Of a stretch of 64,000 nucleotides of DNA, positions 6,851 to 64,000 are shown piece after piece. Within the stretch, counting starts at the first letter, position 1, and each line of letters opens with the position of its first letter. The notes beneath the pieces were generated by a model. It was not told where the DNA came from. It made no database searches and was given only the letters and a program-made list of their open reading frames with translations. Source of the DNA: Macrostomum lignano (taxonomy: Eukaryota). The position numbers were made by a program, and so were the translations under genes. Where the stretch lies: the NCBI GenBank assembly GCA_002269645.1, contig NIVC01000021.1, positions 2,905-66,904 on the forward strand. Reading direction: 5' to 3'.

Positions 6851-6882
6851 CGACACCTACTCACGAGAGCCAAGGAACATAG

Positions 6883-7665
6883 GGCTCATTCCATATAAGC
6901 ATGGTCGTAACATGACAGGTTATTTTTACTTATAAAATGAAATCTAATAATAGAATATACTAAACCAATATTTTAAATGAAAGATTATTTTGTCTAGAAT
7001 ATATTTATAGAGTTTCATATAGATATCATCATTAGTATAGATGCTATTAAACCTTAAATGACACTTATGGTCGTAACGACAGGATTTTTGACATATAGAA
7101 CCAAAAGGTAAAAGTCATAACATTTTTCATTTTTGATATTTTGCAATACATTTTTAAAATTTGACTAAGAACATCTTTAGAAATCATACTCTTTTATTAG
7201 AATATATAAACTCAAAAGGCAACAAAGATACAAAAGAAAAGGCAGCCTTATGGTTGTAACATTATGGTCGTAACATATTTTTTTCTGTCAATTCAGTAAC
7301 TTTGAGGTACTAATACATTAAAAATATAATAGATTATTTGGTCACCAATGCTTTTATCTGATGATGCAAGTACTATACTTTTATCTATAGTTTGTTTCAA
7401 CCTTCAAAAGCTTTCTATTTGTTTTTAAAAGGTACAAAATCTTAATGATGTCTTTTGCTTTGAAAAATGTCCAAATTTTTACAAAAATGACTTTTTGCCA
7501 ATTGATAACATACTAATCCAATATTTTACCATTCCTTTATTCTTAGATTGTATATATTGCACAATATAAACATTTGGTAAAAAAATAGGCTAATTAGGCA
7601 ATGGCAAGCAAAAATATTGACTTTTTTCTATTTTCCAAATATGTCCATCTTATATGAAATGAGCC
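6883..7665. mobile_element. 783-bp non-autonomous TIR DNA transposon inserted in the Penelope endonuclease
   Basis: TIRs GGCTCATTCCATATAAGCATGG and reverse-complement GGCTCATTTCATATAAGATGG; ATAG on both flanks; AT-rich interior with repeated ATGGTCGTAAC. Confidence 0.8.
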
Positions 7666-26700: not shown

Positions 26701-27084
26701 GCTGTACCCTCTTCGCCCAGAGCCGTATGAGTTTCTCAGTTTGCACAGAGCACACAGCCAAGAGTGGGTTTGATGCAGATGGGCAGGTGAAACTGTGCCA
26801 AAGGAGGGCAGAGAGATGCGGAGCGAACCAGATAGAATAGAAAGAGGAGAGCAGAGAAAGGCGGCTGGCGGAGCGAGTTTCATCTTTAAACACAGGCAGG
26901 CAAAAGCGCAGCAGGCAAAGCTGGCAGGGCACACGCCAGCAAAGGAGCTGCAGCAAAAGACACCCGGGCAGAGCCAAGGCCAAGAGCAGCAGGGCAGATC
27001 AGCTGATTGACAGATGCGGCTGGTTAGGGTTAAGCGCCGCTCCACAGCACATTATCAGCGGCACCAACCCCAGGATGTGGACTG
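23733..27084 (-). pseudogene. Fragments of a putative multi-pass membrane protein gene, possibly pseudogenised; exon-like blocks ~27084..26700, 26209..25997, ~24040..23733
   Basis: Exon 26209..25997 has a clean AG and GTGAGT and a hydrophobic helix (WYILFSALFAITFTGSLALFTMAY). The other blocks are hydrophobic but contain in-frame stops or frame breaks. Family not recognised. Confidence 0.35.
24055..25955. repeat. 28-bp satellite CCAGCCTCCCAGATCCTCAGTTGCT(AAG/GGG/GGA)
   Basis: Direct inspection; 28-aa periodic ORFs. Confidence 0.97.
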
Positions 27085-27097
27085 GTAAGTGGGAGTG

Positions 27098-29350
27098 AGA
27101 TCAGAGACAGGGAGATCAGAGACAGGGAGATCAGAGACAGGGAGATCAGAGACACGGAGATCAGAGACAGGGAGATCAGAGACAGGGAGATCAGAGACAG
27201 GGAGATCAGAGACAGGGAGATCAGAGACAGGGAGATCAGAGACAGGGAGATCAGAGACAGGGAGATCAGAGACAGGGAGATCAGAGACAGGGAGATCAGA
27301 GACAGGGAGATCAGAGACAGGGAGATCAGAGACAGGGAGATCAGAGACAGGGAGATCAGAGACAGGGAGATCAGAGACAGGGAGATCAGAGACAGGGAGA
27401 TCAGAGACAGGGAGATCAGAGACAGGGAGATCAGAGACAGGGAGATCAGAGACAGGGAGATCAGAGACAGGGAGATCAGAGACACGGAGATCAGAGACAG
27501 GGAGATCAGAGACAGGGAGATCAGAGACAGGGAGATCAGAGACAGGGAGATCAGAGACAGGGAGATCAGAGACAGGGAGATCAGAGACAGGGAGATCAGA
27601 GACAGGGAGATCAGAGACAGGGAGATGAAAGACAGGGAGATCAGAGACAGGGAGATCAGAGACAGGGAGATCAGAGACAGGGAGATCAGAGACAGGGAGA
27701 TCAGAGACAGGGAGATCAGAGACAGGGAGATCAGAGACAGGGAGATCAGAGACAGGGAGATCAGAGACAGGGAGATCAGAGACACGGAGATCAGAGACAG
27801 GGAGATCAGAGACAGGGAGATCAGAGACACGGAGATCAGAGACAGGGAGATCAGAGACAGGGAGATCAGAGACAGGGAGATCAGAGACAGGGAGATCAGA
27901 GACAGGGAGATCAGAGACAGGGAGATCAGAGACAGGGAGATCAGAGACAGGGAGATCAGAGACAGGGAGATCAGAGACAGGGAGATCAGAGACAGGGAGA
28001 TCAGAGACAGGGAGATCAGAGACAGGGAGATCAGAGACAGGGAGATCAGAGACACGGAGATCAGAGACAGGGAGATCAGAGACAGGGAGATCAGAGACAG
28101 GGAGATCAGAGACAGGGAGATCAGAGACAGGGAGATCAGAGACAGGGAGATCAGAGACAGGGAGATCAGAGACAGGGAGATCAGAGACAGGGAGATGAAA
28201 GACAGGGAGATCAGAGACAGGGAGATCAGAGACAGGGAGATCAGAGACAGGGAGATCAGAGACAGGGAGATGAAAGACAGGGAGATCAGAGACAGGGAGA
28301 TCAGAGACAGGGAGATCAGAGACAGGGAGATGAAAGACAGGGAGATCAGAGACAGGGAGATCAGAGACAGGGAGATCAGAGACAGGGAGATGAAAGACAG
28401 GGAGATCAGAGACAGGGAGATCAGAGACAGGGAGATGAAAGACAGGGAGATCAGAGACAGGGAGATCAGAGACAGGGAGATCAGAGACAGGGAGATCAGA
28501 GACAAGGAGATCAGAGACAGGGAGATCAGAGACAGGGAGATCAGAGACAGGGAGATCAGAGACAGGGAGATCAGAGACAGGGAGATCAGAGACAGGGAGA
28601 TCAGAGACAGGGAGATCAGAGACAGGGAGATCAGAGACACGGAGATCAGAGACAGGGAGATCAGAGACAGGGAGATCAGAGACACGGAGATCAGAGACAG
28701 GGAGATCAGAGACAGGGAGATCAGAGACAGGGAGATCAGAGACAGGGAGATCAGAGACAGGGAGATCAGAGACAGGGAGATCAGAGACAGGGAGATCAGA
28801 GACAGGGAGATCAGAGACAGGGAGATCAGAGACAGGGAGATCAGAGACAGGGAGATCAGAGACAGGGAGATCAGAGACAGGGAGATCAGAGACAGGGAGA
28901 TCAGAGACACGGAGATCAGAGACAGGGAGATCAGAGACAGGGAGATCAGAGACAGGGAGATCAGAGACAGGGAGATCAGAGACAGGGAGATCAGAGACAG
29001 GGAGATCAGAGACAGGGAGATCAGAGACAGGGAGATCAGAGACAGGGAGATCAGAGACAGGGAGATCAGAGACAGGGAGATCAGAGACACGGAGATCAGA
29101 GACAGGGAGATCAGAGACAGGGAGATCAGAGACAGGGAGATCAGAGACACGGAGATCAGAGACAGGGAGATCAGAGACAGGGAGATCAGAGACAGGGAGA
29201 TCAGAGACAGGGAGATCAGAGACAGGGAGATCAGAGACAGGGAGATCAGAGACAGGGAGATCAGAGACAGGGAGATCAGAGACACGGAGATCAGAGACAG
29301 GGAGATCAGAGACAGGGAGATCAGAGACAGGGAGATCAGAGACAGGGAGA
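27098..29350. repeat. 15-bp satellite GAGATCAGAGACAGG, ~150 copies
   Basis: Direct inspection; the DREIR and SLISL ORFs are artefacts. Confidence 0.98.
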
Positions 29351-29779
29351 CCGCACTATCCAGTGTGGCATATTTTCACAGAAAACACAAATTTTGTTTC
29401 ACAATTATTCAATAAAAGCTCACTAACAATAAAAAATTCAATCTGCTAATGCGTCTTCACTGCGATTGAGCAGCTTCACTTTCCAATTCAATAATTGGCC
29501 TTGCTGGGTCTATAGCGGCTCCGGCAATCTGACCAATCGCATTCAGTTCTCCACTGAGGCATAACTTAAACAGCTGCTAACAAAAATCCAGTTTGATGGA
29601 TTAGAAAAGCATTTCTAAACAATATCTACACCTGAAACAGGATAAATGAACTATAAGGCGCGTTTTCAAGGTAAAATCCGGTAAGTTCGATTCCACGAAC
29701 GAGCCACATTCAACACTGTGCTCATGCCTGCCGACCGATGAGAAAGTCAGGGTCGCTGTACACCCAGTGTGAGCGTGTG

Positions 29780-39760: not shown

Positions 39761-40554
39761 TCACAGCTCAAAATTACGGGTATAGTCGTACTCAATAGTG
39801 GGAATCACGGCCTGCATGAACTTGAGGAAGATCAGCAGGTACTGGTGCACGCCCAGCTCCCGCCCGCCCTCCGACACCGTCACCATCAGCCGCTTCATCA
39901 CCTCGGCGTGACGGCACGGGTGCACGCTGGCCATGGGGGGCCCGGTCAGGTGCGGTTGCGTCTCCATGGTGACGGTCTTCTTGGCGTGGTCCTGGCTGAA
40001 GTCTGCGTACATCTGGTCCACGCTCAGCGGCGCTCCCTGCTCGCTGTAGCCAACCAGCCACATGCGCGGCGTCTGGTAGTACTTGTCGTACGTGATGTGC
40101 AGGTCGTAGGTTCGAGTCTGCACAATGCTTTGATCTCCGCAGGCGCCGCTGTCGCTACCGGCGCCAGCTGCCCCGCTGCCGGCCTCGGCGCCGCCGGCTG
40201 TCATGACAACCGCGTCGTCCTCCAGCATGCCGGAGTTGGCGAAGGCCTCCATGTCCACCGCCTCCTCGTTGTCGTCATCTTCATCGTCGCCGCCTGCGTC
40301 CTCCGCCCGGCCGGCAGCACCAGCGGGCGCCGCCGCCGCCTCGTCCATCGACATGTCCTGCACCCGGTCGGCCAGGCCGCCGACGCCCGAGGCGCCACCG
40401 CCGCTGCTACCGCCAGCGGCGCCGCCCTCCTGGGCGAAATGATGCGTGTCCACCCAGCCTCCGTCCGGGTCCGCCTCATCAATCACCTGTAAGCGGGCGG
40501 GTGAGCACTGCTCAGTATTTCACATTTATATCTATCTATCCATCTATCTATCTG

Positions 40555-46850: not shown

Positions 46851-47943
46851 ATGGAAACCTGCATCAGTGAGTTAACATTGATTTTTAAAATCGTTTCTTG
46901 GTGCAAAAAGAAAAACGCAAGTCCTACATGCTATCATTTTTTCAGGCCATCTGCTGGTTGCGCTGCTTTGGTCCGCCCGGCTGACCGACTGCGAGAGTTT
47001 GTCAAGTGACTGGATGAGGTTGGGACTGCCGCAGTGCCTGCCCGAGGCCCAGGCCGTGAGGGTGGCCGAAACTCCATCCGGCATCTCCGACTGCGTCCTG
47101 CTCGCCATGGCTACAAAGGACTCGAGCGGCCAGCTGGTGGCCCAGTTCGACTCGGACACTCGCCAGTGCTCGCTCTTCCAATACACCGCAGTGTGCCACC
47201 TCATCGATGGACTCGCTGCTGCAGAGAGCTCGCAGTCCCGCCGCTGTGCCGCATTCGCCAATGACAGAGCCGCCAAGTTCCTCACCTTGAGCAGAAACCT
47301 GGGCGCCAAGCTGAAAGCCGTCTGGGTGATGAGCGACGATGCGGACGCCAGCAGGAGCAACTTGGTGTGCGGCCAGACGCAGCAGTGGATGTCGGAGAAT
47401 GTGGAGTGGAGCAGCGAGGGAGCCAAGCTCGACGGAGTGTCGTCCAAGATGTGGCTGGAGAACGTGGAGCTCGCGAACCTGCAGCAGGGACTCACGTGGC
47501 TGCTCAGGCTCAAGCGGGATGCCAAGATCGCTCCGCTGTTGCAGACTTACAACTGCGACTCCAAGTCTCTGGGAGCTGCTCTCTGGGACGGCTCACCGAC
47601 AGCTTGGGGCTTGTACTTTTTCAGGGTGGCTCCATCGTATTCAGTGTTCAAAACAACTCTGGAAACAAACTTTTTTGAACGGAACAAATTCGCCGAAGTT
47701 GCCGTAACTTCGGCATCTCCCTTTGACGTCGAATTCTTTTCCAAGGTTGGGCGTGTGTCAAAACCGAATGTAGTGCAGATGGAAAACTATACTATTGCTG
47801 CGGTCCCAAAAATCAACTGCATTGGTTTGGGGTTTCGACCTGGAAGGTCTCAAATGTTGAAGGGCACGGTGCAGGCGGTGGCCATCATGAACGACACGAT
47901 GACGGAGGCTGAGATCAGCAGCTTCTTCGAATTGGTGCGCTGA
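46851..47943 (+). CDS. Secreted PAN/Apple + LamG/ConA-like protein, copy 1 (~337 aa); exons 46851..46866 and 46946..47943
   Basis: Spliced signal peptide METCISHLLVALLWSARLTDCES; Apple-like C...C...FDSDTRQCSLF; LamG-like AKLDGVSSKMWL and C-terminal LKGTVQAVAIMNDTMTEAEI. Domain calls by eye. Confidence 0.75.
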
Positions 47944-48239
47944 CGCCCCGGCGGTCCAGAAAATGATTTTTCTGACAAGTAACAAAAAGTTCTCTGCTTT
48001 TTTGTGATGGCCGGTTTTTATTTTCTGAAAAATATAATTAAAGCAATCAAACATGCATTTAAGCGTCTTCAATCATTTTTCTTTTTATTTCGACGTAGTG
48101 CTGAGAGACTGAAAAGTTGGATCTGCAGCGTCTAAAAGTTTGTCACTCTTACTGCTAAATGGATGATAAGCAAGTTCTAACAAACGGAAACTTCACATCG
48201 TAAAGGACACAAATAAAAACAGTCAATCAAGCGACGGAG

Positions 48240-48595
48240 GCAGGGGGTGTCTGCACCCTGGGACACTTTAAGCGACATTGTCACACAACCCGTGAGAGGC
48301 ATTGTTGCCCATTCCGCTGACTCCCTTGAGCAGACACACAAGCGCGCGGATACGTACACAGGCATACGCAAAGGCACACAGGAGTGTACAGCAGCCCTAA
48401 CTTTATCTACAGTTATGCATGTACAATGTACACTTCACTGTGCCTTGGGGTTGGCCATCAAAGGCGTTAATTGCAAGTGCAGATCCAAGCCTAGATTCCA
48501 ATTTAGCTCCAAAATTAATGTGACTGCAGTTGGAATCGAGCATTGGCCACTGGCACATCAGAGCGCCGCGGTAATCCACTGGGCTGCGGCCCTCA
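48240..48595 (-). mobile_element. tRNA-derived SINE-like element, copy A
   Basis: Minus-strand head with A-box GCCCAGTGG (48584-48576) and B-box GCTCGATTCC (48541-48532); body alignable to 52990..53300. Confidence 0.6.
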
Positions 48596-49141
48596 ATACA
48601 TCAGCCAATACAAAAACTAAAGTATTCTTAAAGCGCTAGATTGCATGCATTTCACAGAGTCACCTGCAAGGGACTGGTTGTGGCAATAAAATTCGAAAAT
48701 TCGGAAAGCAAATTGTTTTCATCACAGTTCAGCTCCTCAACTTTCCCTAACTACGTTTCCCGTATTGCCGTACGTGCCGTGACTATCTGAGTCTCCAAAT
48801 AAATCCACACTAATTATGAGTTAACATCTCGATCGAGCACTACAAAGCCTAACCCGCGAACTTCACAGTTCCATGTTTCAAACACTCGAAGCTTTTGCAG
48901 CCTGTGTCGGTGCCCGTGTCAGTTTTTCTGTCTTTTGATGGCGTCTGTTCCTACAGTAGGCCACCCAGTCTCCGAATTTAACTGGCTCCCTAAATCGCTT
49001 GCCAATCAGAAGTCAGCGTCTCACAGGAAAATTACGCTATCAGATGCCGTGTAACTGAGGAATCGAGAGGACTTATAACGGCAAAGAGAAGCGCGAAAAT
49101 TTTCGTTCAAACTACAGAATATTTCTGCATTCCAAGACATC

Positions 49142-50262
49142 ATGGCACTTTTTCTGACCTGTGCGCCAGCTTATGTGGGTGAGTTTGAGTGGGTTTTCTC
49201 GAATACCGAACTGCAAACTCAATCGCTCCGGACATTCTTTTTAAATATCTACCAGGTCACCTTCTGGTTGCGCTGCTTTGGTCCGCCCAGCTGACCGACT
49301 GTGAGAGTTTGTCAAGTGACTGGATCAGGCTTGGACTGCCGCAGTGCCTGCCCGACGCTCAGGCGGTAAGAGTGGCCAAAACTCCATCCGGCATTGGCTG
49401 CATCATGATCGCTATGGCTACAAAGGACTCGAGCGGCCTGCAGGTGGCCCAGTTCGACTCGGACACTCGCCAGTGCTCGCTCTTCCAATACACCGCAGTG
49501 TGCCACCTCATCGATGGACTCGCTGCTGCAGAGAGCTCGCAGTCCCGCCGCTGTGCCGCATTCGCCAATGACAGAGCCGCCAAGTTCCTCACCTTGAGCA
49601 GGAAGCTCATGCTGGGTGTGGGCTCGAAGCTGAGGGCCGCCTGGGTGATGAGCGACGATGCGGACGCCAGCAGGAGCAACTTGGTGTGCGGCCAGACGCA
49701 GCAGTGGATGTCGGAGAATGTGGAGTGGAGCAGCGAGGGAGCCAAGCTCGACGGAGTGTCGTCCAAGATGTGGCTGGAGAACGTGGAGCTCGCGAGCGTG
49801 CAGCAGGGACTCACGTGGCTGGTCAGGCTCAAGCGGACTGTCCGAGTGGAGGCAACGCTGCTCGAATCCTTTAGCTGCGACTTCATGGCTCTTTGTGCGG
49901 GTTTTTGGGACGGCTGGACTGGTGGATGGGGCCTGTACTTCTTCAGGGTGGCTTCATATTACTTTGAGTACTTCACACCTTCTGCCACGAACTCGTTTGA
50001 CCCGAATGGATTCGTAGAGGTCGGCGTTACTTCGGCGTCTCCGTCAAGCCGCGACTTCTTCTCTAACTCCGGGTTCGTGCCGCGGTCTGCTGTGAACACT
50101 GGTTCTCAGCGTAACGGCGCCGTGTCGACATGCAACTGCATCCGCTTGGGATTTCGACCTGGCGACCTGCGAATGCTGAAGGGCACGGTGCAGGCGGTGG
50201 CCATCATGAACGACACGATGACGGAGGCTGAGATCAACCACTTCTTTTTTCTGGTGCGCTGA
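49142..50262 (+). CDS. Secreted PAN/Apple + LamG/ConA-like protein, copy 2 (~347 aa); exons 49142..49178 and 49256..50262
   Basis: Spliced signal peptide MALFLTCAPAYVGHLLVALLWSAQLTDCES; paralog of 46851..47943. Confidence 0.78.
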
Positions 50263-50729
50263 CCAGTCGACTGATAAATACATTTACAGTAGCTTAAAAC
50301 GTTTGAGTGATTGCGGAACAAAACATTTTGCTGGGTTTTCACTGATAACGAGAGGTTTTTGTTCCCGAGATTGTCTGAAATATCGCAGTAAAGTTTGATG
50401 CTGTTTTATGAAATAAAACGAATTAGAATAAGAACAATAGTCAAAGCAGGTAATTAATATTTCACTGCAATATTATACGTTTTTATTCGTTAATTCCTCA
50501 TTTTCTTATCAATGCCATGCTTGAGTTTGGAATGTTGAAACATTTGAAACACACTGAAACAAGAGTTCATTGGATTTTTTCCAAAGCCAAGAGAACTGCC
50601 ACCAGAGAAAGTCGAAAGTAAGCTGTCTCAAACTCTAAAAGCAAAACCATATTACATCTACCAGAGACGGTGTTTAAAACGCGCTTGTCAATTATTTCAA
50701 TAACTGTCCAGTAACGCAGACATTGCTTG

Positions 50730-51376
50730 CTTTATATGCCTATTGGACGACCAAAAGGCAGTGTCACGTGCACGGCATTGTAGACACCACACTTGGATTG
50801 GAAATATGGAGGGATCAATGGAGGGATTCATTTCAATGAAAGACATTTATTACATGAAAAGGTTCCTGCAACTCTTCCTTGACACAGCTGCAGGGGCTCC
50901 GGGCATTCAGATACAGCGGGGAGGCGTCGACGCCCATTTCGCTGACCCCTGGCGACCACGGGCAGCTGGTACTGCGGTGTCGCACAGGGAGATCCGGTGG
51001 TGCCGGTGTCCGCAGCGCGGTCCCCCTCCGAAGAGGCCAAGAGGAGGATTGTCCCTCGCCCGTGGTAGCCCTTAGGTAGCGGACGAGCTGGCACAGATTC
51101 TCGGGCCTGAAAACGTCGGAGAGGTGAGCTTGTCCTGAGTAAAAGCGAGGAATTCACCCACGCAGTTGTCCGCATTCTCAACTCCGGAAAAGCAGAATGA
51201 GTATTCATCACTGCAGATTTTCCCAGGAGGTGGCGATGCCTAGCAAAACAGCTATCCCTGATGTCCCTGTGGTTGAGTTCAAGCAGTGCCATGTGGAAGG
51301 CGAGAGAAGGACATGGAACAGCCGCAGGGGATTTCTGGAAGTCGGGGGCGTTAATAGTTCTGTCCAAAAATGCCAC
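50730..51376 (-). mobile_element. Degenerate Penelope-like element fragment (thumb-linker, Cys motif, start of GIY-YIG)
   Basis: VPCPSLAFHMAL...RHRHLL...AFPEL...NSSLLLRTS...GTFSCNKC resembles the PLE pattern VPLV.tYHP.L...HwhlL...FPePp....NL..lLvRs...GtfpC..C. Recognised by eye. Confidence 0.5.
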
Positions 51377-52139
51377 CTTTGAATCGGAGTGCTCTTATAA
51401 CTCTACTTATAGTAGCATAGATAAAATAATTCCAAGACAAAAAAGTTCCTTAAAAATGGAAAGCGTATCTAACTGGTACGAAGTAGGAGTTATTTGAAGT
51501 TTCTAGGAACATCCAGTATAAAGTATTGTCTCAGTCTGGAGCATGTGCATGATTTTAATGAGTCTAAGGAAAATCTATTTTAGCATTTGGCCATATCGCA
51601 AGTATTGTATTAAAGCATGCTGCACAGCAAGTTCGTTAGTTTTGCGTATTTCAGAAAATTTCAGCGCTCGCAAAAACTTCTCCGTAGCAAACAAAGTCAG
51701 ATTTTGCTGACTGAAAGCAAAGCCGAATTTCCACAGGTCTTAAACTGACTTGCTGCAACAGCGAAACTTGCGACGCCATGAATAGTGGCAAAGTGTGGCT
51801 TTTCAGCTAATGTGTCTTCGGCTTCAAAGCCCAATTTCGCAACTTGTAGCTAAATGGTATGAAGTCGGCGGTATAAGCTGAGCGAGAAAGCGTTTGAGCG
51901 AAACTGGCCAAGTTAGCGATTTATACCTAAGGTACATTTGAGCTGCTAGAAGTGAATGCTCCGACGTGTCAACGACGCGCATGAATTATCGATCGCGTGC
52001 AACCCCAGATGTACATTTAGAAAAGAATAAAGCTCACTAATTTAAAGCAAACTAACAACGTTATTGCTTCGTCCAGCTGATCAACGGTATTCACGGTATT
52101 TTCAAACCACTTGTACAGGCCGTGACTCTTACTGTGCCA

Positions 52140-52262
52140 GCAGGAGCAAATTGGTGTGTGGCCAGTGGATGTCGGAGAATGTGGAGTGGAGCAGCGAGAG
52201 AGCCAAGCTCGACGGAATCTCGTCCAAGATGTGGCTGGAGAACGTGGAGTTCGAGAAGTCGA
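52140..52262 (+). pseudogene. Fragment of the Apple/LamG family
   Basis: Near-identical to 47350-47470 (GTGGATGTCGGAGAATGTGGAGTGGAGCAGCGAG...TGGCTGGAGAACGTGGAG) with deletions. Confidence 0.85.
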
Positions 52263-52724
52263 AGCATGCAGGAACTCAAAGAATTATTCACTCGAGCTCT
52301 TTGCACTAAGTTGTTTTAAAAACAGGTCAAACAGGTGCATGTTTCTAGCAGGCTCGACTCACCTTTAAGCTGAGACTTGTACCTCTTTTTGTAGAGTCTC
52401 ATCCTTCTCGAAGTTGTGAATGTCTCGGCCATGTTCGCGTTTGATCCTAACGAGTCCTAACGAGCAATGAACGATTCACCTTTCACCTTGTCCGCGAGTG
52501 TTACGAAGAAACCATAACAATACCTTTAGCATCCAATGAGTTCATGCTCTGGGTTGGTTCGTTAAAGAAACTGTTCGTAAAATCCACCCGTCGCTCCTAC
52601 TAAAAATTACGATATGCAAGTCCCAAACAAAAGCGGAGAGCACAATGGCTAGTAACATGACTTTTCTGGCCACTAAAATGCATTAAACTAATAAGAGCAG
52701 GGCGGTCAACCTACGGAATAACGT

Positions 52725-53300: not shown

Positions 53301-54507
53301 CTTCGAATAAAAATTGCTCTTTTTGCGACAAAAGCCCGCTGTTGCGATCGATCTGCTGACTCTATTTCGATATTCCACTCCATCCTTTTGTGACTTCCAC
53401 TCAATGATGCTTTTAGGAGCAGAAATGTAATCAAATTTGCGTATTAACGACATTAAAAGTCTTCTTTGCAACTTTAGGGAATACAAGGGTAAGTTATGGG
53501 GTTCGTTCTGGTTTGAGGACGTTTTTTAGGCAGAAAAAAAACCAGCCCCTAAAGTTCCAGTGTGAGCACAGCTCTCCAAGTTTTAATCATTCGAATTCGA
53601 ATATTTTTGATGAAGAGTAGCTGGGCTGACGATAGTCATTGCAGTGGTAGTTTGGTGTAGTTCGAACTACCCAGCTGGCTCACTGAGCTGAGGTTGCTCG
53701 ATGTTGTCTTGAATGTAATAAAACAAACTCAAGCAAGTCCAAACTCACTCAAATGTTAAATTAGCAAAGAGAAATTATATTTATGCAAAACAACAAAGGG
53801 CTATTAGCTGCAGGATTTTACATGTGAATTCGGAATCGGAATTGGTATTGCATAGATACAGCGTCGGGACACACGCAAGCAGAGAAAACTCGGGCAATCC
53901 ACAATCCACGCAAATTACAAAGTTGAGTAATAATTTTTTACATGCACAACTTAGAAACATGAGAACAGCAGTGTTAAAGGGTTATTTTACTCAAGTTCAC
54001 CGATTCTGCTGCTTGGCCAGTAGTATATAAAAAGACGCTTCTAGACCCAGAGCACTTTTTTAATGACCGTTTTAAGGGTCTAGAGGGGGGACACGGGGGG
54101 TAAATAAAAAAACACATCTAAACACCATTAATACATCTAATCACCCATAATCACCCCTAACAATAAAAATCACTTCCAAACACTTCCAAACACTCCCCAA
54201 CACCCCCCTCGCGTCCCCCCTCTTAAGACCTTACAAACGGCCATTAAAATAAGGTCTGATCTAGAAGCGTCTTTTTATATACTACTACTCTATAACCCCT
54301 AGCCCGCGCCGCAGGCGCGAAGGGTCGGAAAGAATAGAAGCTATTTATAGTCAGCTCACCTACCCACCCAACATTCCATTTAGACCAGATTTTAGACCAA
54401 ATTTTTGAAAACGAAAACCAAAACGATAGTCTAGTTTTGTTTGGTCTAAAATCTGGTCTAAATGGAATGCAGACAATCTTTTTCTGTTACTAAAAATAGA
54501 ACAAAAA

Positions 54508-54906
54508 ATGACACACGTTACACATGTGCAAAATATAAATGAGTATCAGGTAGGAGATCCAATTGAATACCGAGGTGAGGGACTTTTTGATTTGGTTGGA
54601 ACAGCAGCAAATTTTGTTAAAGACAATATGGGGCTTATAGGGCAAGCTGGCTCTGCAGCAGGCTCTATAACAAATGCTGTAAAAGGAGGAATTGAAGCAG
54701 CTAGAGCGGCAGAAGAACTAAAGAAATTGAGAGATTTTAACGACACCCTCTCACAAATAAATGCAATAAAAGATTTAAAGCTGGCACAAGCCGCACAACC
54801 AACAGAAACCCCCACGAAAAGCGCACCAATAAGTAATAAAGATATTCAGGATTTTAATAAAATGTTAAATACTATTAAAGGTGGAAAAGGATTAAAGAAA
54901 TTTTAA
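54508..54906 (+). CDS. Small putative virion core/membrane protein (132 aa)
   Basis: RGEGLFDLVGTAANFV amphipathic helix and terminal GGKGL resemble adenain-processed Polinton core proteins (inference). Confidence 0.6.
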   Translation: MTHVTHVQNINEYQVGDPIEYRGEGLFDLVGTAANFVKDNMGLIGQAGSAAGSITNAVKGGIEAARAAEELKKLRDFNDTLSQINAIKDLKLAQAAQPTETPTKSAPISNKDIQDFNKMLNTIKGGKGLKKF

Positions 54907-54916
54907 CAATATAAAA

Positions 54917-55909
54917 ATGGACTCAGTTAATGATGAAAACCGGTTATATTTTATAGGAGAAATTGTAGATACCTTAAATCTTGATGATAATAAACATAGC
55001 CACACAATGTTAAAAAGATTGGATCGATTAGGTAAAAAGTTTGACTACGACATCGATACATTTAAACTCGCAGCAAAATATGCACAAGAAGGAAGGCCAA
55101 TATCCTTTAAGAATCGCGGCAGAAATTATAGGTTGACAGACTCCGATGTGAAATTTTTAATGGAGACTCACACTAAAAAGGACGGCGGATTACTACCCAT
55201 TCTACCGCTTCTTTTAGGACTTGGTGCAGCTGGAGCAGTCGGTTTAGCCGGAAAAAGAATTCATGATAATGTAAAACAGCTAGGAGAGTTAAGAGCGAAA
55301 CAGGGGGGAATCTTACCCCTTGCAGCTTTGCTCCCAATAATTTTTGCAGGAATTGGAGCAGCTGGAGGAGTTGCTGGCGGAGCAGCTGGAATTGCAAAAG
55401 CAGTAAATGACAAAAAAGCTGCGGACGAAAAAGCCAAACGAGATGCAGAATTTCAAAGACAGCAAATAACGCAGGACGCACAATTCAAACAGAAACTTAT
55501 TGATACCATTAATAGTAGTTCAGCAACAGCAGAGCAAAAAAGAAATGCAGAAGCTAGGTTAGCAGCCGGAAAAGGTTTACTCTTGCAAGGAACAAATCAC
55601 GGGAATGGTTTGGTACTAAAAGGAACAACCCAAGGAAGTGGAGTTGTAGCAGATAAACTACATGAATTTGGTCAAACTTTAGAAAAAACGGGTGAGAAAG
55701 CTAAAGGATTTTTTGACAATATTGGATCCAATTTTAGGCCAGCAGTTCAGAAGATTTTTACTAAGTTAGGAAAAGATTTTAATATCATTGAAAAACACGA
55801 CGGAAGCGGATTATATCTCGAAATGAGACCAAAAGCAGGTTCAGGAATTTTCTTAAATTCAAACGTTATGGGCAATGGATTGCTATTACCAAAAGCAGAT
55901 CTCGAATAG
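54917..55909 (+). CDS. Adenovirus pX-like Polinton core protein (330 aa)
   Basis: GGLLPILPLLLGLGAAG and GGILPLAALLPIIFAGIGAAGGVAGGAAGIAKAV resemble adenoviral pX GGFLPALIPIIAAAIGA; six G[KNS]G-hydrophobic motifs in the C-terminal part. Confidence 0.75.
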   Translation: MDSVNDENRLYFIGEIVDTLNLDDNKHSHTMLKRLDRLGKKFDYDIDTFKLAAKYAQEGRPISFKNRGRNYRLTDSDVKFLMETHTKKDGGLLPILPLLLGLGAAGAVGLAGKRIHDNVKQLGELRAKQGGILPLAALLPIIFAGIGAAGGVAGGAAGIAKAVNDKKAADEKAKRDAEFQRQQITQDAQFKQKLIDTINSSSATAEQKRNAEARLAAGKGLLLQGTNHGNGLVLKGTTQGSGVVADKLHEFGQTLEKTGEKAKGFFDNIGSNFRPAVQKIFTKLGKDFNIIEKHDGSGLYLEMRPKAGSGIFLNSNVMGNGLLLPKADLE

Positions 55910-55992
55910 GCTCCTGGGGGAGGGTCTGGACACCAAAAACACAAAATTAAAAAATCAATAATTCAAACATTATATAAATTTTATTCTATAAA

Positions 55993-58900
55993 ATGGAAGC
56001 AATTTTAGCTCAAATCGACAACCCTGAACTTAGAGCACAATTAATAGCTCAAATCGATGCACAACGAATTGCCGATAGGGCTGAAATAGAAGCAAGAATT
56101 AGGGCAGAAAATGAGATACGTTTAGAAAGACAATTAAATGATATTAATAACCCCCAACCACAAGTACAAAATGGAGCTGAAGTAATATATATAGATATAG
56201 ATATAAATACAAATTATAAAGAATATTTTAAACAAATGAAAGATAAATTAAAGACTATATTAAACAATTATACTATAAGGCCAAATAACAAACGACAGCC
56301 AATTAAGTATAAAATAGAAGTTGAAACAGAATTTAAAAAACCAAATATTCTTAATGCAAATTCAGAAATTGAAGTAATAAATAACTTTTCACAAGAATCA
56401 TATAAAACATTATTATCAATGGGAAATTACAACAATCAATTCGATCAAATAGAAGCTGAGTTTGATGAATGGATAGATAAGATGACAGAAAACGGATCTG
56501 GGTTTATATTTGTATCCTGTAATTCAGCAATAGTAAAGATTGCACCTATAGAAATTCTTAAAGGACGATCACATATGAAGCTCAAATTTAAATCACCTAT
56601 GATTATAAATCCAGACAATAAAGATAATAAATGTTTATTATGGTGTTTATTAATTCATAAATATCACAATCAAGTAGAATCACACATTAATAAAATATAT
56701 AATTATAGACAATATGAGGATGAAATAATAATGAAAAACATATCATACCCAGTAGCAATAGATGATATATATAAGATTGAAAAAATGAATGGTTTAAATA
56801 TTAATGTTTTTACAATTGAAGAACCAAAAGATCTAGAAGAAATTCAGCAGGTCGATCCAGAATGGTATAAGAAAAACTGTTATCTTGTTAAGCCAGCAAC
56901 TGATATAACAGCACCAGATCAAATCGATCTTTTGTACATGCAGCGCGAAAATGAAACACATTATATATACATAAAAGATATTAGTTCTTTTTTAAGAGAA
57001 AATAGAAATAGATATCCACTATGTAGAAATTGTTTTACATTTAAAAAGGATGAAACAGCTCTTAAAAACCACCAACGATTTTGTTTAGATCACAAATTTA
57101 CTAATGCTATAATGCCAGCATCTGAAGATGCAACCCTAAAGTTCCAACAACATTATATGGCAGTTAAAAAACCAATAGTAATATATGCTGATTTTGAAGC
57201 AACAAATGTTCCCTTAAAAGAATCACAGACGGTATCTGATGACGGTGAATGCACAAAAAAATTGGCACAACAGTTTCCGAATAGTTATTGTATATATGTA
57301 CACTCTGTAGCTGATCATATATTTAAATCAAGGATGATTACTTACCACGGTAATTATGCAGCTAAGCACATGGCAGAATCATTAGTAAATGTATTTGAAT
57401 ATATTCAAAATCAATATGATAAATTATCAAAAAATATTAATATGACAAATAAGGATAGAGACAATTATAAAAATGCAACAAATTGTTTTATGTGCAAAAG
57501 ACATTTAAGTAAGAATAATAAGATACGAGAACATTGTCATCTAACAGGAAATTATCGAGGGGCAGCATGTAGATCATGTAATGCAAAAGAAGGAAAAGGA
57601 TGTAAGGAAATACCAGTATTTTTTCATAATGGTTCCGGATATGATTTTCATTTCTTAGTTCGAGAATTGCTTCATTTAGGAAAGGATGAATATGAAATAA
57701 ATATATTACCTAAAACATCAGAAAATTACATATCAATAACATATGGTAAGAAATACTCCCATCTAGTTTTTCTAGATTCCTTGAGATTCTTATCAACATC
57801 TTTAGCAAATGTTGTTTCATCATTAGTTCCAAAACCATGGGATTTAGAAATAGTAAAGAAAAACTTTCCAATCTTATTGAATCGTTTCAAAAAAGAAAAA
57901 CTATCCGAGGAAGAACTAATGCTATTAACTCGTAAGGGCATCTACCCATATGAATATGTAACATCTGAAGACGTATTTTTTCATACCGAATTACCCCAAT
58001 TGAAAAGTTTTATTCAACATTATCACAAACAAACATAAGTGAATCGGATTATGAACACGCTCAAAAAGTATGGAAATACTTTAATTGTAAAACATTTAAA
58101 GATTATCATAATCTATATCTTAAAGCAGATGTTCTCCTATTAGCTGATGCATTTGAAAACTTTAGGAATCATACATATGAGAATTTTAAAATTGATCCCG
58201 CATATTGTTTCAGTGCACCGGGATTAACATGGGCTTGTGGTTTGAAACATACAGATGTTAAGATTGATTTACTAACTGATCATGATATGTTGTTAATGAT
58301 TGAGAGAGGAATTCGCGGTGGATTCTCGGGTGTACTAGGAGATAGATATACTAAAGTAAATAATAAATATCTACCAAATTATAATAAAAAAGAAAAATCA
58401 TCATATGTATTATATCTAGATGCAAACAATTTATACGGTGGTTGTATGAAACAAAAATTACCAATAGCTGATTTCCAATGGGAAGATGACCCCGATTATT
58501 ACAAAAATATTCCCGAAGGAAGGGGCTGTATCGTAGAAGTGGATTTGCAATATACTCGGGAAGCAAAAGCAAAAACATATAAATATCCTTTAGCTCCAGA
58601 GCATTGTTCAGTTAATGAAGATGATTTATCACAAACACAAAAAGATTATCTTAAAGTAGATAATACAAAACATCTAGCAACAAAAAAATTAATATTAAAT
58701 TTACATGATAAGAAAAACTATGTAGTGCATTATAAGCTTCTACAATTTTATGAAAAGCAGGGATTAAAAGTGTCTAAAGTACATCGAACAATATCGTTTA
58801 TTGAGGAAGATTGGTTAGCTAAATATATTGACTTTAATTCAAATCAGAGACAGATGTCAAAAACAAATTTTGAGAAAGATTATTGGAAATTAATGAATAA

Positions 58901-59959
58901 TGCTTTTTATGGAAAAACGGTTGAAAATATTAGAGATAGAACCCAATTCCATTTAGAAAAGGATATTGATAAAGCAAAGAAATATTTCTCAAAACCTAAC
59001 TTTAAAGACTTTATAAAATTTGATGATAACTTTATGGGTATTCATATGAGAAATAAAACAACAAAATTTCTTAAACCAATATTTATTGGAATGGTTGTTT
59101 TAGATTTGCAAAGCTAGTAATGTATGAATACTATTATGATGTTATAAATAAAACATGGCCAGATAACTATCCAATATATGCAGACACCGACAGTTTGGTA
59201 TTTAAGGTTGAAACAGATGACCGGACGGAGTCCGCGAACCAAAGGTTCGATGTCTATAAAGATATGGAAAAAATTAAGGATACATTGGATACCTCCGACT
59301 ATCCGGATAACCATCCTTTAAAATCAGATCAAAATAAAAAAGTTGTACTTAAAATGAAAGATGAATTAAATAGCAAAATCATAACCGAGTTTATAGCAAT
59401 AAGATCAAAATGCTATGCATTTAAGGTTTTAGGACAGGAGGGAGAGGTAAAAAAAATAAAAGGGGTATCAAGAGCAGCAGTAAAAAAGATAACATTTGAT
59501 GATTATAAAAACGTACTTTTAGATTACCTTAATACAATTGAAAATTATCATGCTCCACAATATCGATTAAATTCAGATAAGCATCAGATGTTTGTCATCG
59601 AGACAGATAAAAAAACATTAAGTCCATTTGATGATAAAAGATATTTAGATGATAAAATTAAAACATATCCATATGGTTTAAAAGAAGAGATAAAAAATAT
59701 GATAAAAGATAAAAAACAAAAAGAAGATATAATAAGTAAATATAATGAATACAAAGCGGCAATAAATAATTATTATTACGATTGTGATTGTGAATCCGAA
59801 TGTGATTGTGAATATAATACATTTCTAGAATATGAAAAAGATATAGATAATTATTATTCAACATTTCCAAAAGAACTTAAAAAATTAAATAAGGAAAAAG
59901 TCTTGAATAACTGGAAGAGATTAACAGAAAAATTACTTATCGGGTCTGTAAAAAACTAA
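55993..59959 (+). CDS. polB: Protein-primed family B DNA polymerase with N-terminal region, C2H2 finger and endonuclease VII-like insertion (~1,322 aa once two 1-nt deletions at ~57995 and ~59109 are restored)
   Basis: IYADFE (ExoI), FHNGSGYDFHF (ExoII), CFMC...REHCHLTGNYRGAACRSCN (EndoVII), RKGIYPYEY, YLDANNLYG, KLMNNAFYGK, YADTDS, KMKDE, RSKCY, KGVS across ORFs 55993..58038, 58242..59117 and 59120..59959. Confidence 0.95.
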
Positions 59960-60003
59960 AGCATGTAATTGTTTGAGCAAATCATTAACTTCAATTTCAT
60001 ATA

Positions 60004-60291
60004 TTATTGAGCACCAATTATCCTCACAGTCGCAGGGTAACTTAAACAATCCTTTATTTTTTTCCTAAGTTTTTTTATTTTTCTAACCAATCTATCTATT
60101 TCAATTTCAATTACTATTTCAGCATAAACAATATCTTGTCTTAAAAAACGTTTTCTTTTATCTATCTCATATCGGATGGGAAACATATCGTCCCCATACT
60201 CATGATATTTCTGAGATATAATTATATTTATTTTTTTATTAATATCATTAAGTTCACGCTCTTTAGTGATAAGGATTTTTATCGTATCCAT
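60004..60291 (-). CDS. Hypothetical viral protein (95 aa, basic, coiled-coil)
   Basis: ATG preceded by TATAAGAAA; tightly packed between neighbours; no motif recognised. Confidence 0.55.
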   Translation of the reverse strand: MDTIKILITKERELNDINKKINIIISQKYHEYGDDMFPIRYEIDKRKRFLRQDIVYAEIVIEIEIDRLVRKIKKLRKKIKDCLSYPATVRIIGAQ

Positions 60292-60306
60292 TTTCTTATA
60301 AAAAAT

Positions 60307-60639
60307 TTAGTCTTCGTCGTCATCCTCCCAAACAGCCGCCAATTTTACAGTCCTATCACTCTTTTTATTATTTGTTTGTTTTAGTTTAAATTGCAATCCA
60401 CCCTCGTTGCAGTATTTCATAACAAACGCTTTAGGTTTATTAATAACTAAAACAGGAAAATTTTTAACATCATCTCCGCTTAGACATAAAATTTTTTGCC
60501 CATCTAATTGTAAAAATATTGATTGAAGCCCAATAAATTTAACCTGTCTCAAACATATAATATTATATTCTTTATTCTCCAACATATTGGGTGTGAGATA
60601 ATTAATCACATTAGAATCGGTTTTGAACCAGCTCTCCAT
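60307..60639 (-). CDS. Hypothetical viral protein (110 aa, acidic C-terminal tail)
   Basis: Complete ATG ORF packed in the element; ends WEDDDED. Confidence 0.6.
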   Translation of the reverse strand: MESWFKTDSNVINYLTPNMLENKEYNIICLRQVKFIGLQSIFLQLDGQKILCLSGDDVKNFPVLVINKPKAFVMKYCNEGGLQFKLKQTNNKKSDRTVKLAAVWEDDDED

Positions 60640-60665
60640 TTTTAATCTAAAAAAATAACAAAAAA

Positions 60666-61178
60666 ATGAAAGACATTTATGTTTGTAATAAATGTAATGT
60701 GACTATGCACAGAGGGCAAACAGCAAACGGAGATATATATCATATGTGTTATTCATGTTCTAAAATATATCAATTTGAAAAAACAAAAAAGATTGAAAAC
60801 TCATATTACTATTTTAAAAACACAATTTTAAGAAATCTTACAAGAGACATTTCTGATCCAATTTTAATTCCCGGAAATAATGTTTATTTATATAATAACT
60901 TTTTCCATTTAAATAAAGGAAAGGGATTAAGTTCGAAAGACTCTGAAAGGATTTTAATTTTAGTTGGATATTATTTCAATTTTCTTATTCGAGAGAATAC
61001 AAAGTTTATAAGGATAGGTAACATACCTAACGAAATGTTATTGAAAAAGTCATTGGAATTTTTATGTATTGATAAAAAATTTAAACCTAGGATCAGAAGA
61101 GAGTTACCACTTTGGGAAGAATATATAACATATGCATTAGAAAAACTAAACAACCTGAAGTTCTACCGCACTTCCTGA
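60666..61178 (+). CDS. Hypothetical viral protein with N-terminal CxxC-x17-CxxC zinc ribbon (170 aa)
   Basis: VCNKCNVTM...MCYSCSK; complete ORF. Confidence 0.6.
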   Translation: MKDIYVCNKCNVTMHRGQTANGDIYHMCYSCSKIYQFEKTKKIENSYYYFKNTILRNLTRDISDPILIPGNNVYLYNNFFHLNKGKGLSSKDSERILILVGYYFNFLIRENTKFIRIGNIPNEMLLKKSLEFLCIDKKFKPRIRRELPLWEEYITYALEKLNNLKFYRTS

Positions 61179-61790
61179 CCGCGGCTTTGTGCCCCAGTAG
61201 CAATAGTTTCAGGTTCGTAAATGCCTAATGTTTCTATAGGTGGAGCTTTGGGTTTATCGAGTCTCAACTCTTTTAATTCCATATCGGTAAAAGTTTCAAC
61301 ATCTAAAATTCTATTTCTATCTTTTAAATATTTTTCATATAATTCAACCGCGGTTGATAATTCATGAATCGTTATCTCTCCGTCATCCAATATTTTTTGC
61401 ACATATAAATATAATTGATTTTTATATTGTTTGCAACATCTCTTAATGATTTATATTTTTCCTTTCTTTTTTAAGATATAATTTAATTGCTAAAAGTATT
61501 GATAAGTTTCTGATCATTCAAAACCTGATATTGAGCCAATTGAAATACCTAAAAATAATTGAGATAAATTAAGAGTTGGAATAGATTGTAAAATACCTAA
61601 AACGATTACACATAACATTGATAAGCTTCCAAATCCAATATTGAAAAAATCCATATTTCTTATATGGTTTGAAACTCTTCTTACTTTTTTAGTATATAAA
61701 TCATAATCATAATTTACGATCAACATTACTTAACATCTGACCTTTACGTTGGTTGAATGATCGCGTTCCCATTTATCTGCTTCAGATACC
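61163..61790 (-). pseudogene. Disrupted Polinton-type hydrophobic/coiled-coil protein (tentatively the family described as gasdermin-like in adintoviruses)
   Basis: Hydrophobic GFGSLSMLCVIVLGIL...LFLGISIGSISG, then GKYKSLRDVANNIKSI and, in another frame, ILDDGEITIHELSTAVELYEKY. This resembles the recurrent Polinton motif al.DgkIsdeEf..i..e.ekY. Several stops and frameshifts. Confidence 0.45.
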
Positions 61791-62108
61791 GACATTCTCG
61801 TCTATTTTTAATAGCACCAAAATGAATTCCCCACGCTCTTTGGGATTTGATCCCGAGCTCAATAGGTATTGTATTGGAGTTATTCTTTCTTTTTTCTCCC
61901 ATTTAAATCCTATTTTCCAAAACTCTTGAAGTATAATATGATTTTTTAATAACTTAATTAATTCTTGAAGCTTCTTATTATCCTGAACATTTACAGTACT
62001 AAATAAAAATTTGGTATGAGATTTGAATGTTTTTATATTTGATTCTTGTTTAGGAATAGGAATAATAACATTATTTTGCCGCATCGATGGAGTTCTACTA
62101 AAAGCCAT
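61782..62108 (-). CDS. Hypothetical viral protein (108 aa)
   Basis: Complete ATG ORF preceded by TATATA; no motif recognised. Confidence 0.55.
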   Translation of the reverse strand: MAFSRTPSMRQNNVIIPIPKQESNIKTFKSHTKFLFSTVNVQDNKKLQELIKLLKNHIILQEFWKIGFKWEKKERITPIQYLLSSGSNPKERGEFILVLLKIDENVGI

Positions 62109-62144
62109 TATATAAATATTTATATAAATATTATAATCGCTTAC

Positions 62145-64000
62145 TTAGGCTATTATTTCGGTTTGTGGCCGTTCCAAATATGCGGTCGCAGCAAAATCAT
62201 ATCCTGCTGATGTGCTACCACAAACGGCTGCACCACGAATAAAATGTGCGGCATCTGCTCCTCCAGTTCGAGCACCAAAACCCATAAGAGTTCCCGTTTT
62301 ATCTAAATCTCCCCAAGTTCCACTATCATATGTAAAAAAGTTTTGCCCAATTAGCGTATATGTATTAGCTGATACATTGTATGTGCTTATTTGATACCAA
62401 ACTCTTTGATTTAAAATATTAATTTCAAAAAGATGCCAATCGCCGTTATCAATATTAGCATAGGTTATAGTTTGATCTGCGTCATTAAGAACATCATTAC
62501 GAGCTGTTGCACCGTCTGATTTTATATTGCTCCAAACAACCCCAACTCTATCATGCCATTCACTCGCAAACACAATCAAGCCGGCGCGGGTTGTTAACCC
62601 GGATCCAAATTCACTTGTTGGACGTTCGTGACAATATGCATAAAACCAAACGCGTCAGCACCATCTCCTGTAGCATTAGCAACTCGGAAATAGAAGGAGG
62701 CGGAGATATTACGAAAATGGGTGAAATTAAATTGCAACGCTCCAGACCACTTGCTTCATCAGTAATTCTAGCTCCATTTTGATAATCAATATAAGTAGCT
62801 ACCAACAAAACTTCCAGTTGGAAAAATATCGCCGGCTGTGGTTGGGTTTTGATATCCAGTCCAATTGCAAATTACGGCTCGTACAAAGCGGCATCAATTG
62901 CAGGTATTCCATCCAATTTTATTTTATCATTAAAAGACATTCGGCCATCCGCCGTTTGTGTTACTCGCGTATCAACATAACCTTTAGTAACAACAGAACT
63001 GTTATTGTTTATATTAGAGACATTGTATGTATTGGAACCCATATCAATTGATTGATTAACACTCCCAAATTTAAATCAAGAATTGTAAAGTCTGTCTATA
63101 AATCTGAAGGTTGACAGCCGGGTTGGTTAGAACCCAAGTTGATGTAAGACAGAACAATCTGAAATATGAATATGTTTTATCAAAATTTTGTGTGACATTA
63201 ATTGTTTGAGTTGAGTTATTTATTTCTACAGAACTATCCGCAGGTATTAATACGTCCCAACTTGTATTGTCATTACTTCCCTCAAATCGCCATGATGCTG
63301 GGTGCTCGGTTGAGGTGATGGCCTACCACGTAAATCAATTTTATAACACATTATTGCGGAAGGGCATTGACTTGAATCCAATAATCGGTTGAGTATTATT
63401 TGTTGCCCAATCTGTTGATCATTTCCATCAAACGCTTTCCAACTTGCAAAATCAGTTGTATTAAATGCAGTGCTTGCGGTTATTGCAAAACCATTTCCAC
63501 TCCAATCTGCCATGGTAGGTATGTCCGGTTTCAACCGTTTGGAATCGATCCTTGTTTTGGGGCTCCACCCCCAACTATATTATCAACTTCGGTTTTGGTA
63601 TAAGTATCAGAACATTCCGTTTAAATTTAATGAATTATCAACTTCAGTTTTGCTATAAGAATCAGTTATATCTCTTTAAATTTAGGGAATTATCAACTTC
63701 GTTTTGGTATAGGAATCAGTTATATCTCTTTTTAAATTTAGGGAATTATCAACTTCAGTTTTGGTATAAGAATCAGCAACATTCCGTTTTAAATTTAGGA
63801 ATTATCAACTTCGGTTTTGGTATAAGAATCGGCCGTATTGCGTTTTAAATTTAATGAATCATCTATTTGAGTTCGAGAATAAGAATCAGTTATATCTCTT
63901 TTTAAATTTAACCCATTGTCAACCTCTGTTTTGTATATGAATCGGCTACGTTCCGTTTTAAATTTAGGGAATTATCTATTTGAGTTTTGGTATAGGAATC
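62145..64000 (-). CDS. Fibre/receptor-binding-like protein, frameshifted and 5'-truncated by the window: 20-aa YTKTEVD repeats, discoidin (F5/8 C)-like domain, TKGYVD motif, C-terminal L-type lectin domain
   Basis: Across frames: DSYTKTEVDNSLNLKRDIT repeats (63560-64000); IPTMADWSGNGFAITASTAF...WKAFDG...KIDLRGR; VVTKGYVD; SASFYFRVANATGDGADAFGF; DNGDWHLFEI; MGFGARTGGADAAHFIR. Confidence 0.7.
63560..64000. repeat. ~60-bp coding tandem repeat (fibre shaft), ~7 copies visible
   Basis: Recurrent TTTAAATTTAGGGAATTATCAACTTC.GTTTTGGTATA.GAATC. Confidence 0.9.

Follow-up and report, generated by a model that had tools for sequence, protein, structure and literature searches.

A recent, multi-copy Polinton in the genome of Macrostomum lignano with predicted fold-back terminal repeats, an invertible loop and two fibre alleles

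What is the element that closes contig NIVC01000021.1 of the Macrostomum lignano assembly GCA_002269645.1, and how are its ends copied? The window considered here is a stretch of 64,000 nucleotides of that contig (positions 2,905 to 66,904 of the forward strand). At position 54019 of the window an AGTAGT terminus begins an element that fills the remainder, and the window's end is also the end of the contig (C21), where the element is cut. A preliminary description, made from the letters alone, read it as a Polinton/adintovirus-like element with virion genes, and that reading is supported by the present analysis. The element is confirmed as a Polinton/Maverick, probably of the Beta-adintovirus type, present in many recent copies across which its gene set, in part putative, was read. 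On balance it is probable that this family is copied as linear DNA from a protein primer, is packaged, and uses hairpins in its terminal inverted repeats (TIRs) as working ends. These fold-back hairpins, an invertible loop and two alleles of the fibre gene were absent from the preliminary description.

The junction of host and element at 54018/54019 is genuine. Forty scored genomic relatives also start at the base equivalent to 54019 or a few bases away. The 619 bp before the junction recur in two other contigs, C2727 and C2501 (100% and 94% identity), both of which run on without the element and hold the hexanucleotide TTGGCC once. TTGGCC had been predicted as the 6-bp target-site duplication (TSD), and its second copy was found among the right ends (30 fetched out of the 40 scored) on contig C2840, where it flanks the element and is followed by the continuation of the empty site. 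C2840 overlaps the final 1.8 kb of the window at 96% identity, which gives a whole copy of about 17.7 kb by overlap, and it carries the anticipated right TIR, which differs from the left TIR by two substitutions. Contaminant viral DNA misjoined to the host might be suspected for a copy that lies at a contig end and has frame breaks; the probability of such a misjoin is negligible, since the empty site and the matching right end with TTGGCC refute it, and 20 sequencing runs, belonging to 7 studies on this organism, contain the element. Host genes of the window are of animal type (a leucine-rich-repeat seven-transmembrane receptor and ATG3). The sharp compositional shift that had been described holds for the flanks as a whole, GC being 0.467 in the 10 kb upstream and 0.317 inside the element, but the step at the junction itself is mild (0.43 to 0.38). 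The insertion point is 14 bp past the stop codon of a Tctex-1 family gene (L061:72-310, on C2840; Pfam E 7e-12) and probably sits in its 3' untranslated region.

In this copy the polymerase gene, the fibre gene and two orphan genes are broken across frames. Short-read contigs from 4 runs (at least 12 rows) differ from the assembly here by single-base indels at many places, and in other copies the breaks fall at other positions; the frame breaks are therefore probably consensus errors near the contig end.

The polymerase is a family B enzyme of the protein-primed type (pPolB). All the catalytic motifs claimed for it are complete, but they are spread over three reading frames, which had gone unmentioned. 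Its catalytic positions are conserved in 30-31 of 31 aligned sequences, and the ratio of nonsynonymous to synonymous substitution rates (dN/dS) is 0.16. The protein includes an endonuclease VII domain and gives no match to PF03175; a candidate N-terminal OTU-like domain is suggested by the alignment, whose positions for the OTU residues hold Cys in 29 and His in 30 of the 31 sequences. Relatives at E<=1e-30 make up 4423 of 8000 scored candidates, the best about 50% identical; that is the level reached by multi-copy polymerases, and most named mussel, spider and snail enzymes stand at about 40%. The phylogeny proposed earlier now exists as a quick tree, in which pPolB has no close sister, but which holds no named Beta reference. 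A length within 15-20 kb, TIRs of several hundred base pairs starting AG, a 6-bp TSD, a protein-primed family B polymerase, an rve integrase, an A32/FtsK ATPase and a double-jelly-roll capsid all found here, are together the marks of a Polinton/Maverick, and the Beta-adintovirus type is probable from agreement with the definitions of PMC8502044 (section 3.1). A distant metagenomic relative (L257:1-720), with a pPolB 31% alike, has an AGTAGT start and telomere-like TTAGGG runs.

Integrase, capsid and ATPase genes had been expected to the right, and all three lie in the C2840 half together with an HNH-like gene and penton-like and fibre frames; a protease-like frame was read in other copies. The integrase of this insertion's right half matches PF00665 at 33.2 bits (cut-off 32.6), and the packaging ATPase of another copy matches PF04665 (Pox_A32) at 29.1 bits (cut-off 22.8). 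For the capsid, folding from a single sequence reached a predicted local distance difference test (pLDDT) value of 29 only; the model built from a 68-row alignment predicts a double jelly roll at pLDDT 89.6 and matches the capsids of mavirus, iridovirus and Sputnik with E 1e-14 to 1e-16. PF21738 is present in 51 of the 68 aligned relatives. A search of 1.84 billion proteins returned 72 capsid relatives at E<=0.001; three relatives, counting a further search, are 43-51% identical over full length. None was found among viral contigs, and the capsid profile had no match among PDB sequences. The penton and protease that were also predicted have candidates where they should be. A frame of 261 residues between the ATPase and protease-like genes is, from its gene position, a candidate for the single-jelly-roll penton, and one of 146-155 residues, presumably the protease from its position, shows His, Asp, Gln and Cys in the order of an adenain/Ulp1-type enzyme. 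More than one pX-like protein had been proposed among the first open reading frames (ORFs) of the element. The 330-residue ORF, likely a virion core or entry protein, matches Adeno_PX weakly (E 0.01, 16.1 bits, under the 25-bit cut-off), but the 132-residue ORF, possibly a core protein, does not. Pfam matches to SseC, Med28, NMT, YlmH and RGS were dropped as weak or repeat-driven.

How large and how old is the family? Exact end-junction patterns, which supply the copy count suggested earlier, gave 162 matches, 43 at left ends that belong to the window's subfamily and 119 at other ends, or about 80 elements in the genome if each has two ends. Copies measured 18,256 and 17,643 bp; one of 23,202 bp carries an internal duplication. 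When both ends lie on the same contig, 15 of 20 pairs have matching 6-bp TSDs, and the five mismatched pairs may be chimeras or nested copies. Bodies of the subfamilies are about 81-94% alike. The two TIRs within one copy are only 0-6 substitutions apart in all 14 pairs measured, so that, despite the divergent bodies, several lineages inserted recently; the notion that the divergent subfamilies are old copies was rejected, their TIR pairs being as young as the window's. The TIRs themselves fall into two classes, class II sharing only the tip and the last 39 bp with class I.

Several individual copies deserve mention. The 23.2-kb copy (C110; L025-L027) has a matching TSD and an internal duplication of about 5 kb, with two fibre and two protease-like genes, possibly an assembly artefact. 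Deleted copies of about 3-9 kb on C1040, C1052 and C2121 (L097, L098, L099) have kept both TIRs and clean TSDs, that on C1052 lacking the inner hairpin arm (see below) at both ends. Two copies (L013:8514-9632; L064:572-1688) carry an unrelated insert with a 372-residue frame directly after the fibre gene. Many contigs stop 8-14 kb into a copy, and the family is a frequent cause of assembly breaks.

Selection on the genes of these copies bears on whether the element is more than a transposon. Pooled over the window element and 8 divergent copies, within segments at least 60-65% alike, dN/dS is 0.11 for the capsid, 0.11 for the penton-like, 0.09 for the protease-like, 0.13 for the ATPase and 0.09 for the integrase gene; at dS of 0.2-0.4, the virion genes are constrained as much as the integrase. 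A separate HNH/endonuclease VII-like gene (L061:2785-3402; L066:6383-6985) occurs as two main alleles about 51% alike, and with dN/dS of about 0.4 it is under weaker constraint than the virion genes. The fibre gene, correctly called in the preliminary description, lies in pieces on the minus strand here; the open frame of another copy matched an F5/8 type C domain (E 2e-11), phage tail proteins and a tail-fibre structure. Its shaft is built of 57-bp repeats (from about 63565), that is of 19 residues each, in numbers that vary between copies, and is followed by the F5/8 type C domain and a C-terminal domain. The F5/8 type C domain, of a sugar-binding type, exists in two alleles 33% alike, found in 14 and 13 of the 27 copies covered; both persist across subfamilies and share the C-terminal domain. 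The fibre domains have dN/dS of 0.07 and 0.37. Two persisting fibre alleles are more readily explained by cell attachment, and selection on the virion genes together with the two fibre types points to the formation of particles.

A germ-line transposon and nothing else, with capsid genes kept for an intracellular role or recently inherited from an infecting ancestor, would accord with the lack of free DNA and particles in contig-type runs, with a capsid that has no relative among viral contigs, and with the insertion of deleted, non-autonomous copies as well. It would leave the integrase-like constraint on virion genes at such dS, and the persistence of both fibre alleles, to be explained, and it is regarded as a serious but rather unlikely account.

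The reading preferred here, a packaged element with working fold-back ends, leans further on the structure of the TIRs. The first 268 bp of the window's TIR are predicted to fold into a hairpin of about 270 nt (-61 kcal/mol, z -13.5, with 0 of 200 shuffles as stable), whose stem in class I pairs to the last base. Covariation was scored in 10 class I TIRs, one per chosen subfamily copy and related to one another: two-sided changes occur at 10 of the 27 outer pairs and 96.4% of cells are paired, a result reached by 0 of 500 shuffles and set against 35-54% in slid controls. In class II, a hairpin of equal size is predicted at 10 of the 13 ends (z -6.7 to -15.5), with the terminal 8-13 bases left unpaired. 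More widely, 50 (those of at least 8 kb) of 113 related loci were scanned, of which 6 have long inverted repeats and one a clear AGTAGT end.

Such hairpins might be by-products of template switching near the ends, which would regenerate an inverted terminus whose function is not under selection. Arm-over-arm copying is indeed seen, the outer arm having been copied over the inner arm at two ends; mismatched intermediate states at one polymorphic pair are common (18 of 46 distinct TIRs); and copies without the inner arm have inserted, which makes a neutral by-product possible. It is nevertheless unlikely. With so little sequence in common, the two TIR classes both yield hairpins about 260 nt in size on stems of about 80 bp, and the loop remains G-poor over lengths that range between about 100 and 130 nt. 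All 8 of the divergent full-size copies compared keep the hairpin, and the distant metagenomic relative (L257) has a perfect 46-bp stem inside its end repeat.

One natural end is extended outwards by 18 nt, which repeat the bases immediately inside the inner arm and end at the GC mini-hairpin of the TIR edge; these 18 nt are absent from five homologous host sites. As a single case, it fits the product expected if a folded 3' end were extended. Could the hairpins then be self-priming telomeres in the manner of parvoviruses, the closed end being resolved by the endonuclease VII domain of pPolB or by the HNH-like gene? This extension is exactly the one expected, the class I stem is paired to its last base, two nuclease candidates are encoded, and the available text of a report on palindromic TIR ends of protist virophages as well as of polinton-like viruses (PLVs) proposes the same idea (10.64898/2026.07.28.741278). 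Yet the last bases of class II ends are unpaired, and no flipped terminal hairpin occurs among 3 matches to the exact flip pattern of the window's subfamily, the one subfamily searched; for these two reasons self-priming is less likely as the normal route. The AGTAGT repeats and the conserved OTU-like Cys and His also fit protein priming, endonuclease VII domains are common in such polymerases, and no HUH nickase match was found among the ORFs scanned, with several orphan ORFs remaining. Self-priming is accordingly judged improbable.

A second inverted structure lies just inside the left TIR. The 152-bp segment that bears it is confined to left ends of the window's subfamily and was skipped by the short-read contigs of 4 out of 4 runs. 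Its perfect 30-bp repeats have 86 exact matches, all except three on contigs known to bear a left end. Out of 39 left ends, the 38-bp loop that they enclose has the window's orientation in 12 and the reverse in 27; on a tree built from the first 2.3 kb with the loop excluded, 6 orientation changes are needed, of which well-supported branches force 5. Contributions to this mixture could come from repeated flipping, from recombination of one copy with another and from chimeric assembly. As the loop lies 70 bp upstream of the first ORF, a regulatory effect is possible.

For the preferred protein-primed reading, the steps at an end can be sketched as follows. An rve integrase makes a 6-bp TSD, and at ends of the AGTAGT type a pPolB uses its own terminal-protein domain for priming. 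Both rve integration and protein-primed replication are established for the Polinton family in the available text of PMC11071308. The element would be copied as linear DNA by protein-primed strand displacement, and each end of the displaced single strand would probably fold onto its own inner arm. A folded end would give a local duplex beside the initiation template, and the two ends, 18 kb apart, would not have to meet. Fold-back would let one arm template the other, keeping the arms complementary, and the GC mini-hairpin would limit how far a folded 3' end is extended. The 38-bp loop might flip by a similar template switch between its perfect repeats, or be shuffled by recombination between copies. 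A far bolder construction would make the family a circulating virus with two fibre types and hybrid replication (a protein-primed first strand, and a displaced strand primed by its own hairpin), endonuclease VII resolution and an invertible 38-bp switch before the first genes; this is thought decidedly improbable.

Exchange between copies appears to go further, with fibre, nuclease and TIR types reassorting. Among copies whose TSDs match, fibre allele A is found alongside either TIR class; the combination of allele B and a class II TIR occurs in one copy only, and its TSDs are mismatched.

It is important to set out what weighs against this account. No free linear end, circle, head-to-head joint or particle was seen, in contig-type runs that cannot show ends and show joints poorly, and the depth of contigs is roughly what the assembled copy number would lead one to expect. 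The penton-like frame is without a Pfam, PHROG or PDB match and the protease-like frame without a Pfam or PHROG match, and the identity filter applied to dN/dS lowers dN. The relatedness of the TIRs and copying from arm to arm can inflate the covariation even without selection. The inner arm is absent at 3 of the 13 class II ends, and a 5.5-kb copy without it has a clean TSD, so that insertion in trans can do without the hairpin. The partner end of the copy with the 18-nt extension was searched for and not found, and a templated insert of this kind can also arise from end-joining repair by the host. The 5 mismatched TSD pairs among 20 mean that some assembled copies are perhaps chimeric, which weakens the claim of reassortment.

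Table 1. Window coordinates of the features at the left end of the element
Feature	Position	Strand	Remarks
6-bp target-site duplication TTGGCC	54013..54018	+	single in empty sites C2727 and C2501; repeated outside right end on C2840
Left TIR, 308 bp	54019..54326	+	starts AGTAGT; 99.4% identical to right end on C2840
Fold-back hairpin in TIR	54019..54286	.	arms about 85 nt; perfect outer 27 bp (54019-54045 with 54260-54286)
Hairpin loop, 100 nt	54102..54201	+	G-free on this strand, short C/A repeats; 0-4 G in related TIR loops
GC mini-hairpin, inner TIR edge	54305..54319	+	six pairs, GCA loop; invariant in 10/10 aligned class I TIRs; also at class II edge
152-bp segment	54327..54478	+	left end of window's subfamily only (43 exact left junctions); absent from other subfamilies
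Perfect 30-bp inverted repeats around 38-bp loop (54402-54439)	54372..54469	.	loop found in both orientations
132-residue ORF	54508..54906	+	no Pfam or PHROG match; dN/dS 0.13
330-residue ORF	54917..55909	+	two hydrophobic pX-like stretches, six GxG(L/I/V) repeats; dN/dS 0.09
pPolB	55993..59959	+	frames 55993-58038, 58287-59117, 59120-59959; Exo I, II, III, Pol A, B, C and KxY motifs
Orphan ORF	60004..60291	-	95 residues here, 119 in many copies; dN/dS 0.47
Orphan ORF, 110 residues	60307..60639	-	dN/dS 0.21
Orphan ORF, 170 residues	60666..61178	+	N-terminal CxxC motif pair; dN/dS 0.17
Orphan gene with hydrophobic stretch, in pieces	61146..61802 (approximate)	-	218 residues in other copies; dN/dS 0.11
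Orphan ORF, 108 residues	61782..62108	-	dN/dS 0.09
Fibre gene, allele A	62140 (approximate)..64000	-	cut by contig end; in pieces here

The host part of the window (Table 1 covers the element) includes, at 10898-18663, the leucine-rich-repeat receptor gene together with upstream frames that resemble, by eye, CUB, C-type lectin and LDLa modules. An ATG3-like exon (PF03987) lies at 39761-40519, and an intronless gene of about 350 codons with tandem paralogues at 46882-52267. A reverse-transcriptase-like fragment was recognized by eye at 5887-6885, and a 2.4-kb array of a 15-bp unit occupies 27034-29415, with several further simple arrays elsewhere in the window. A bacterial promoter scan, of no relevance to such a host, was empty.

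To find a Polinton in an invertebrate is nothing unusual, and the available text of one report mentions Polinton-type insertions in flatworms (10.1101/2025.04.19.649669); less ordinary are the fold-back ends and the natural products of their copying, as well as the loop that inverts and the pair of fibre alleles. Animal Polintons and Beta adintoviruses, as presented in the available text of PMC8502044, are alike in size, TIRs and 6-bp TSD, in a divergent PolB that PF03175 does not match, in rve integrase, FtsK/A32 ATPase and double-jelly-roll capsid and, tentatively, in a pX-like small protein. The capsid here is divergent, no matches to gasdermin, cupiennin or PLA2 were found in this element, with a pX match only below threshold, and that text has neither the TIR hairpin nor the invertible loop nor fibre alleles in a pair. 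Among titles and the starts of abstracts (subscription papers and Repbase falling mostly outside, and survey supplements perhaps listing the family), no such ends were described for an animal Polinton. Nematode Polintons (10.1101/2023.08.22.554363, available text) are likewise multi-copy, with a nuclease domain within pPolB and gene exchange between elements. In those elements it is the polymerase that is exchanged, and they have a fusogen; in the present family the variable parts are the fibre domain, the nuclease gene and the type of TIR, and a fusogen was not found. Fibres of PLVs that carry discoidin (F5/8 type C) domains share the modular, phage-like design and a carbohydrate-binding-type domain; they belong to protist elements, and two balanced alleles within one animal genome are not described in the available text of PMC12220804. 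The Halocafeteria virophages and PLVs (10.64898/2026.07.28.741278, available text) also have palindromes at TIR ends beside the TSD, with a proposed role in hairpin priming. Theirs are 52-nt palindromes in a protist host, with mostly non-pPolB replication genes. The present hairpins, of about 270 nt with a loop of 100 nt, belong to an animal element that has pPolB, and they show covariation and have natural products of copying. Bidnavirus inverted terminal repeats form no hairpins, according to the available text of PMC4061559.

How animal Polintons leave the chromosome, replicate and form particles is a largely untested field. Many young copies and divergent, recombining subfamilies in one genome amount to a natural mutant series, in which end fold-back is kept across two unrelated TIR sequences, fold-back products are preserved, and capsid and fibre genes are under selection. 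The end-replication step thereby becomes answerable with short oligonucleotides and end-mapping of natural DNA. Two classical systems frame that step. Parvoviruses have terminal hairpins, and adenovirus replicates through a panhandle and by protein-primed strand displacement. The fold-back ends resemble those of parvoviruses, but here neither an HUH nickase (in the ORFs scanned) nor a terminal flip/flop (for one subfamily pattern) was found. With adenovirus the likeness would be protein-primed strand displacement; adenovirus pairs its two ends with each other, whereas in this element the pairing partner of each end is an arm within the same repeat.

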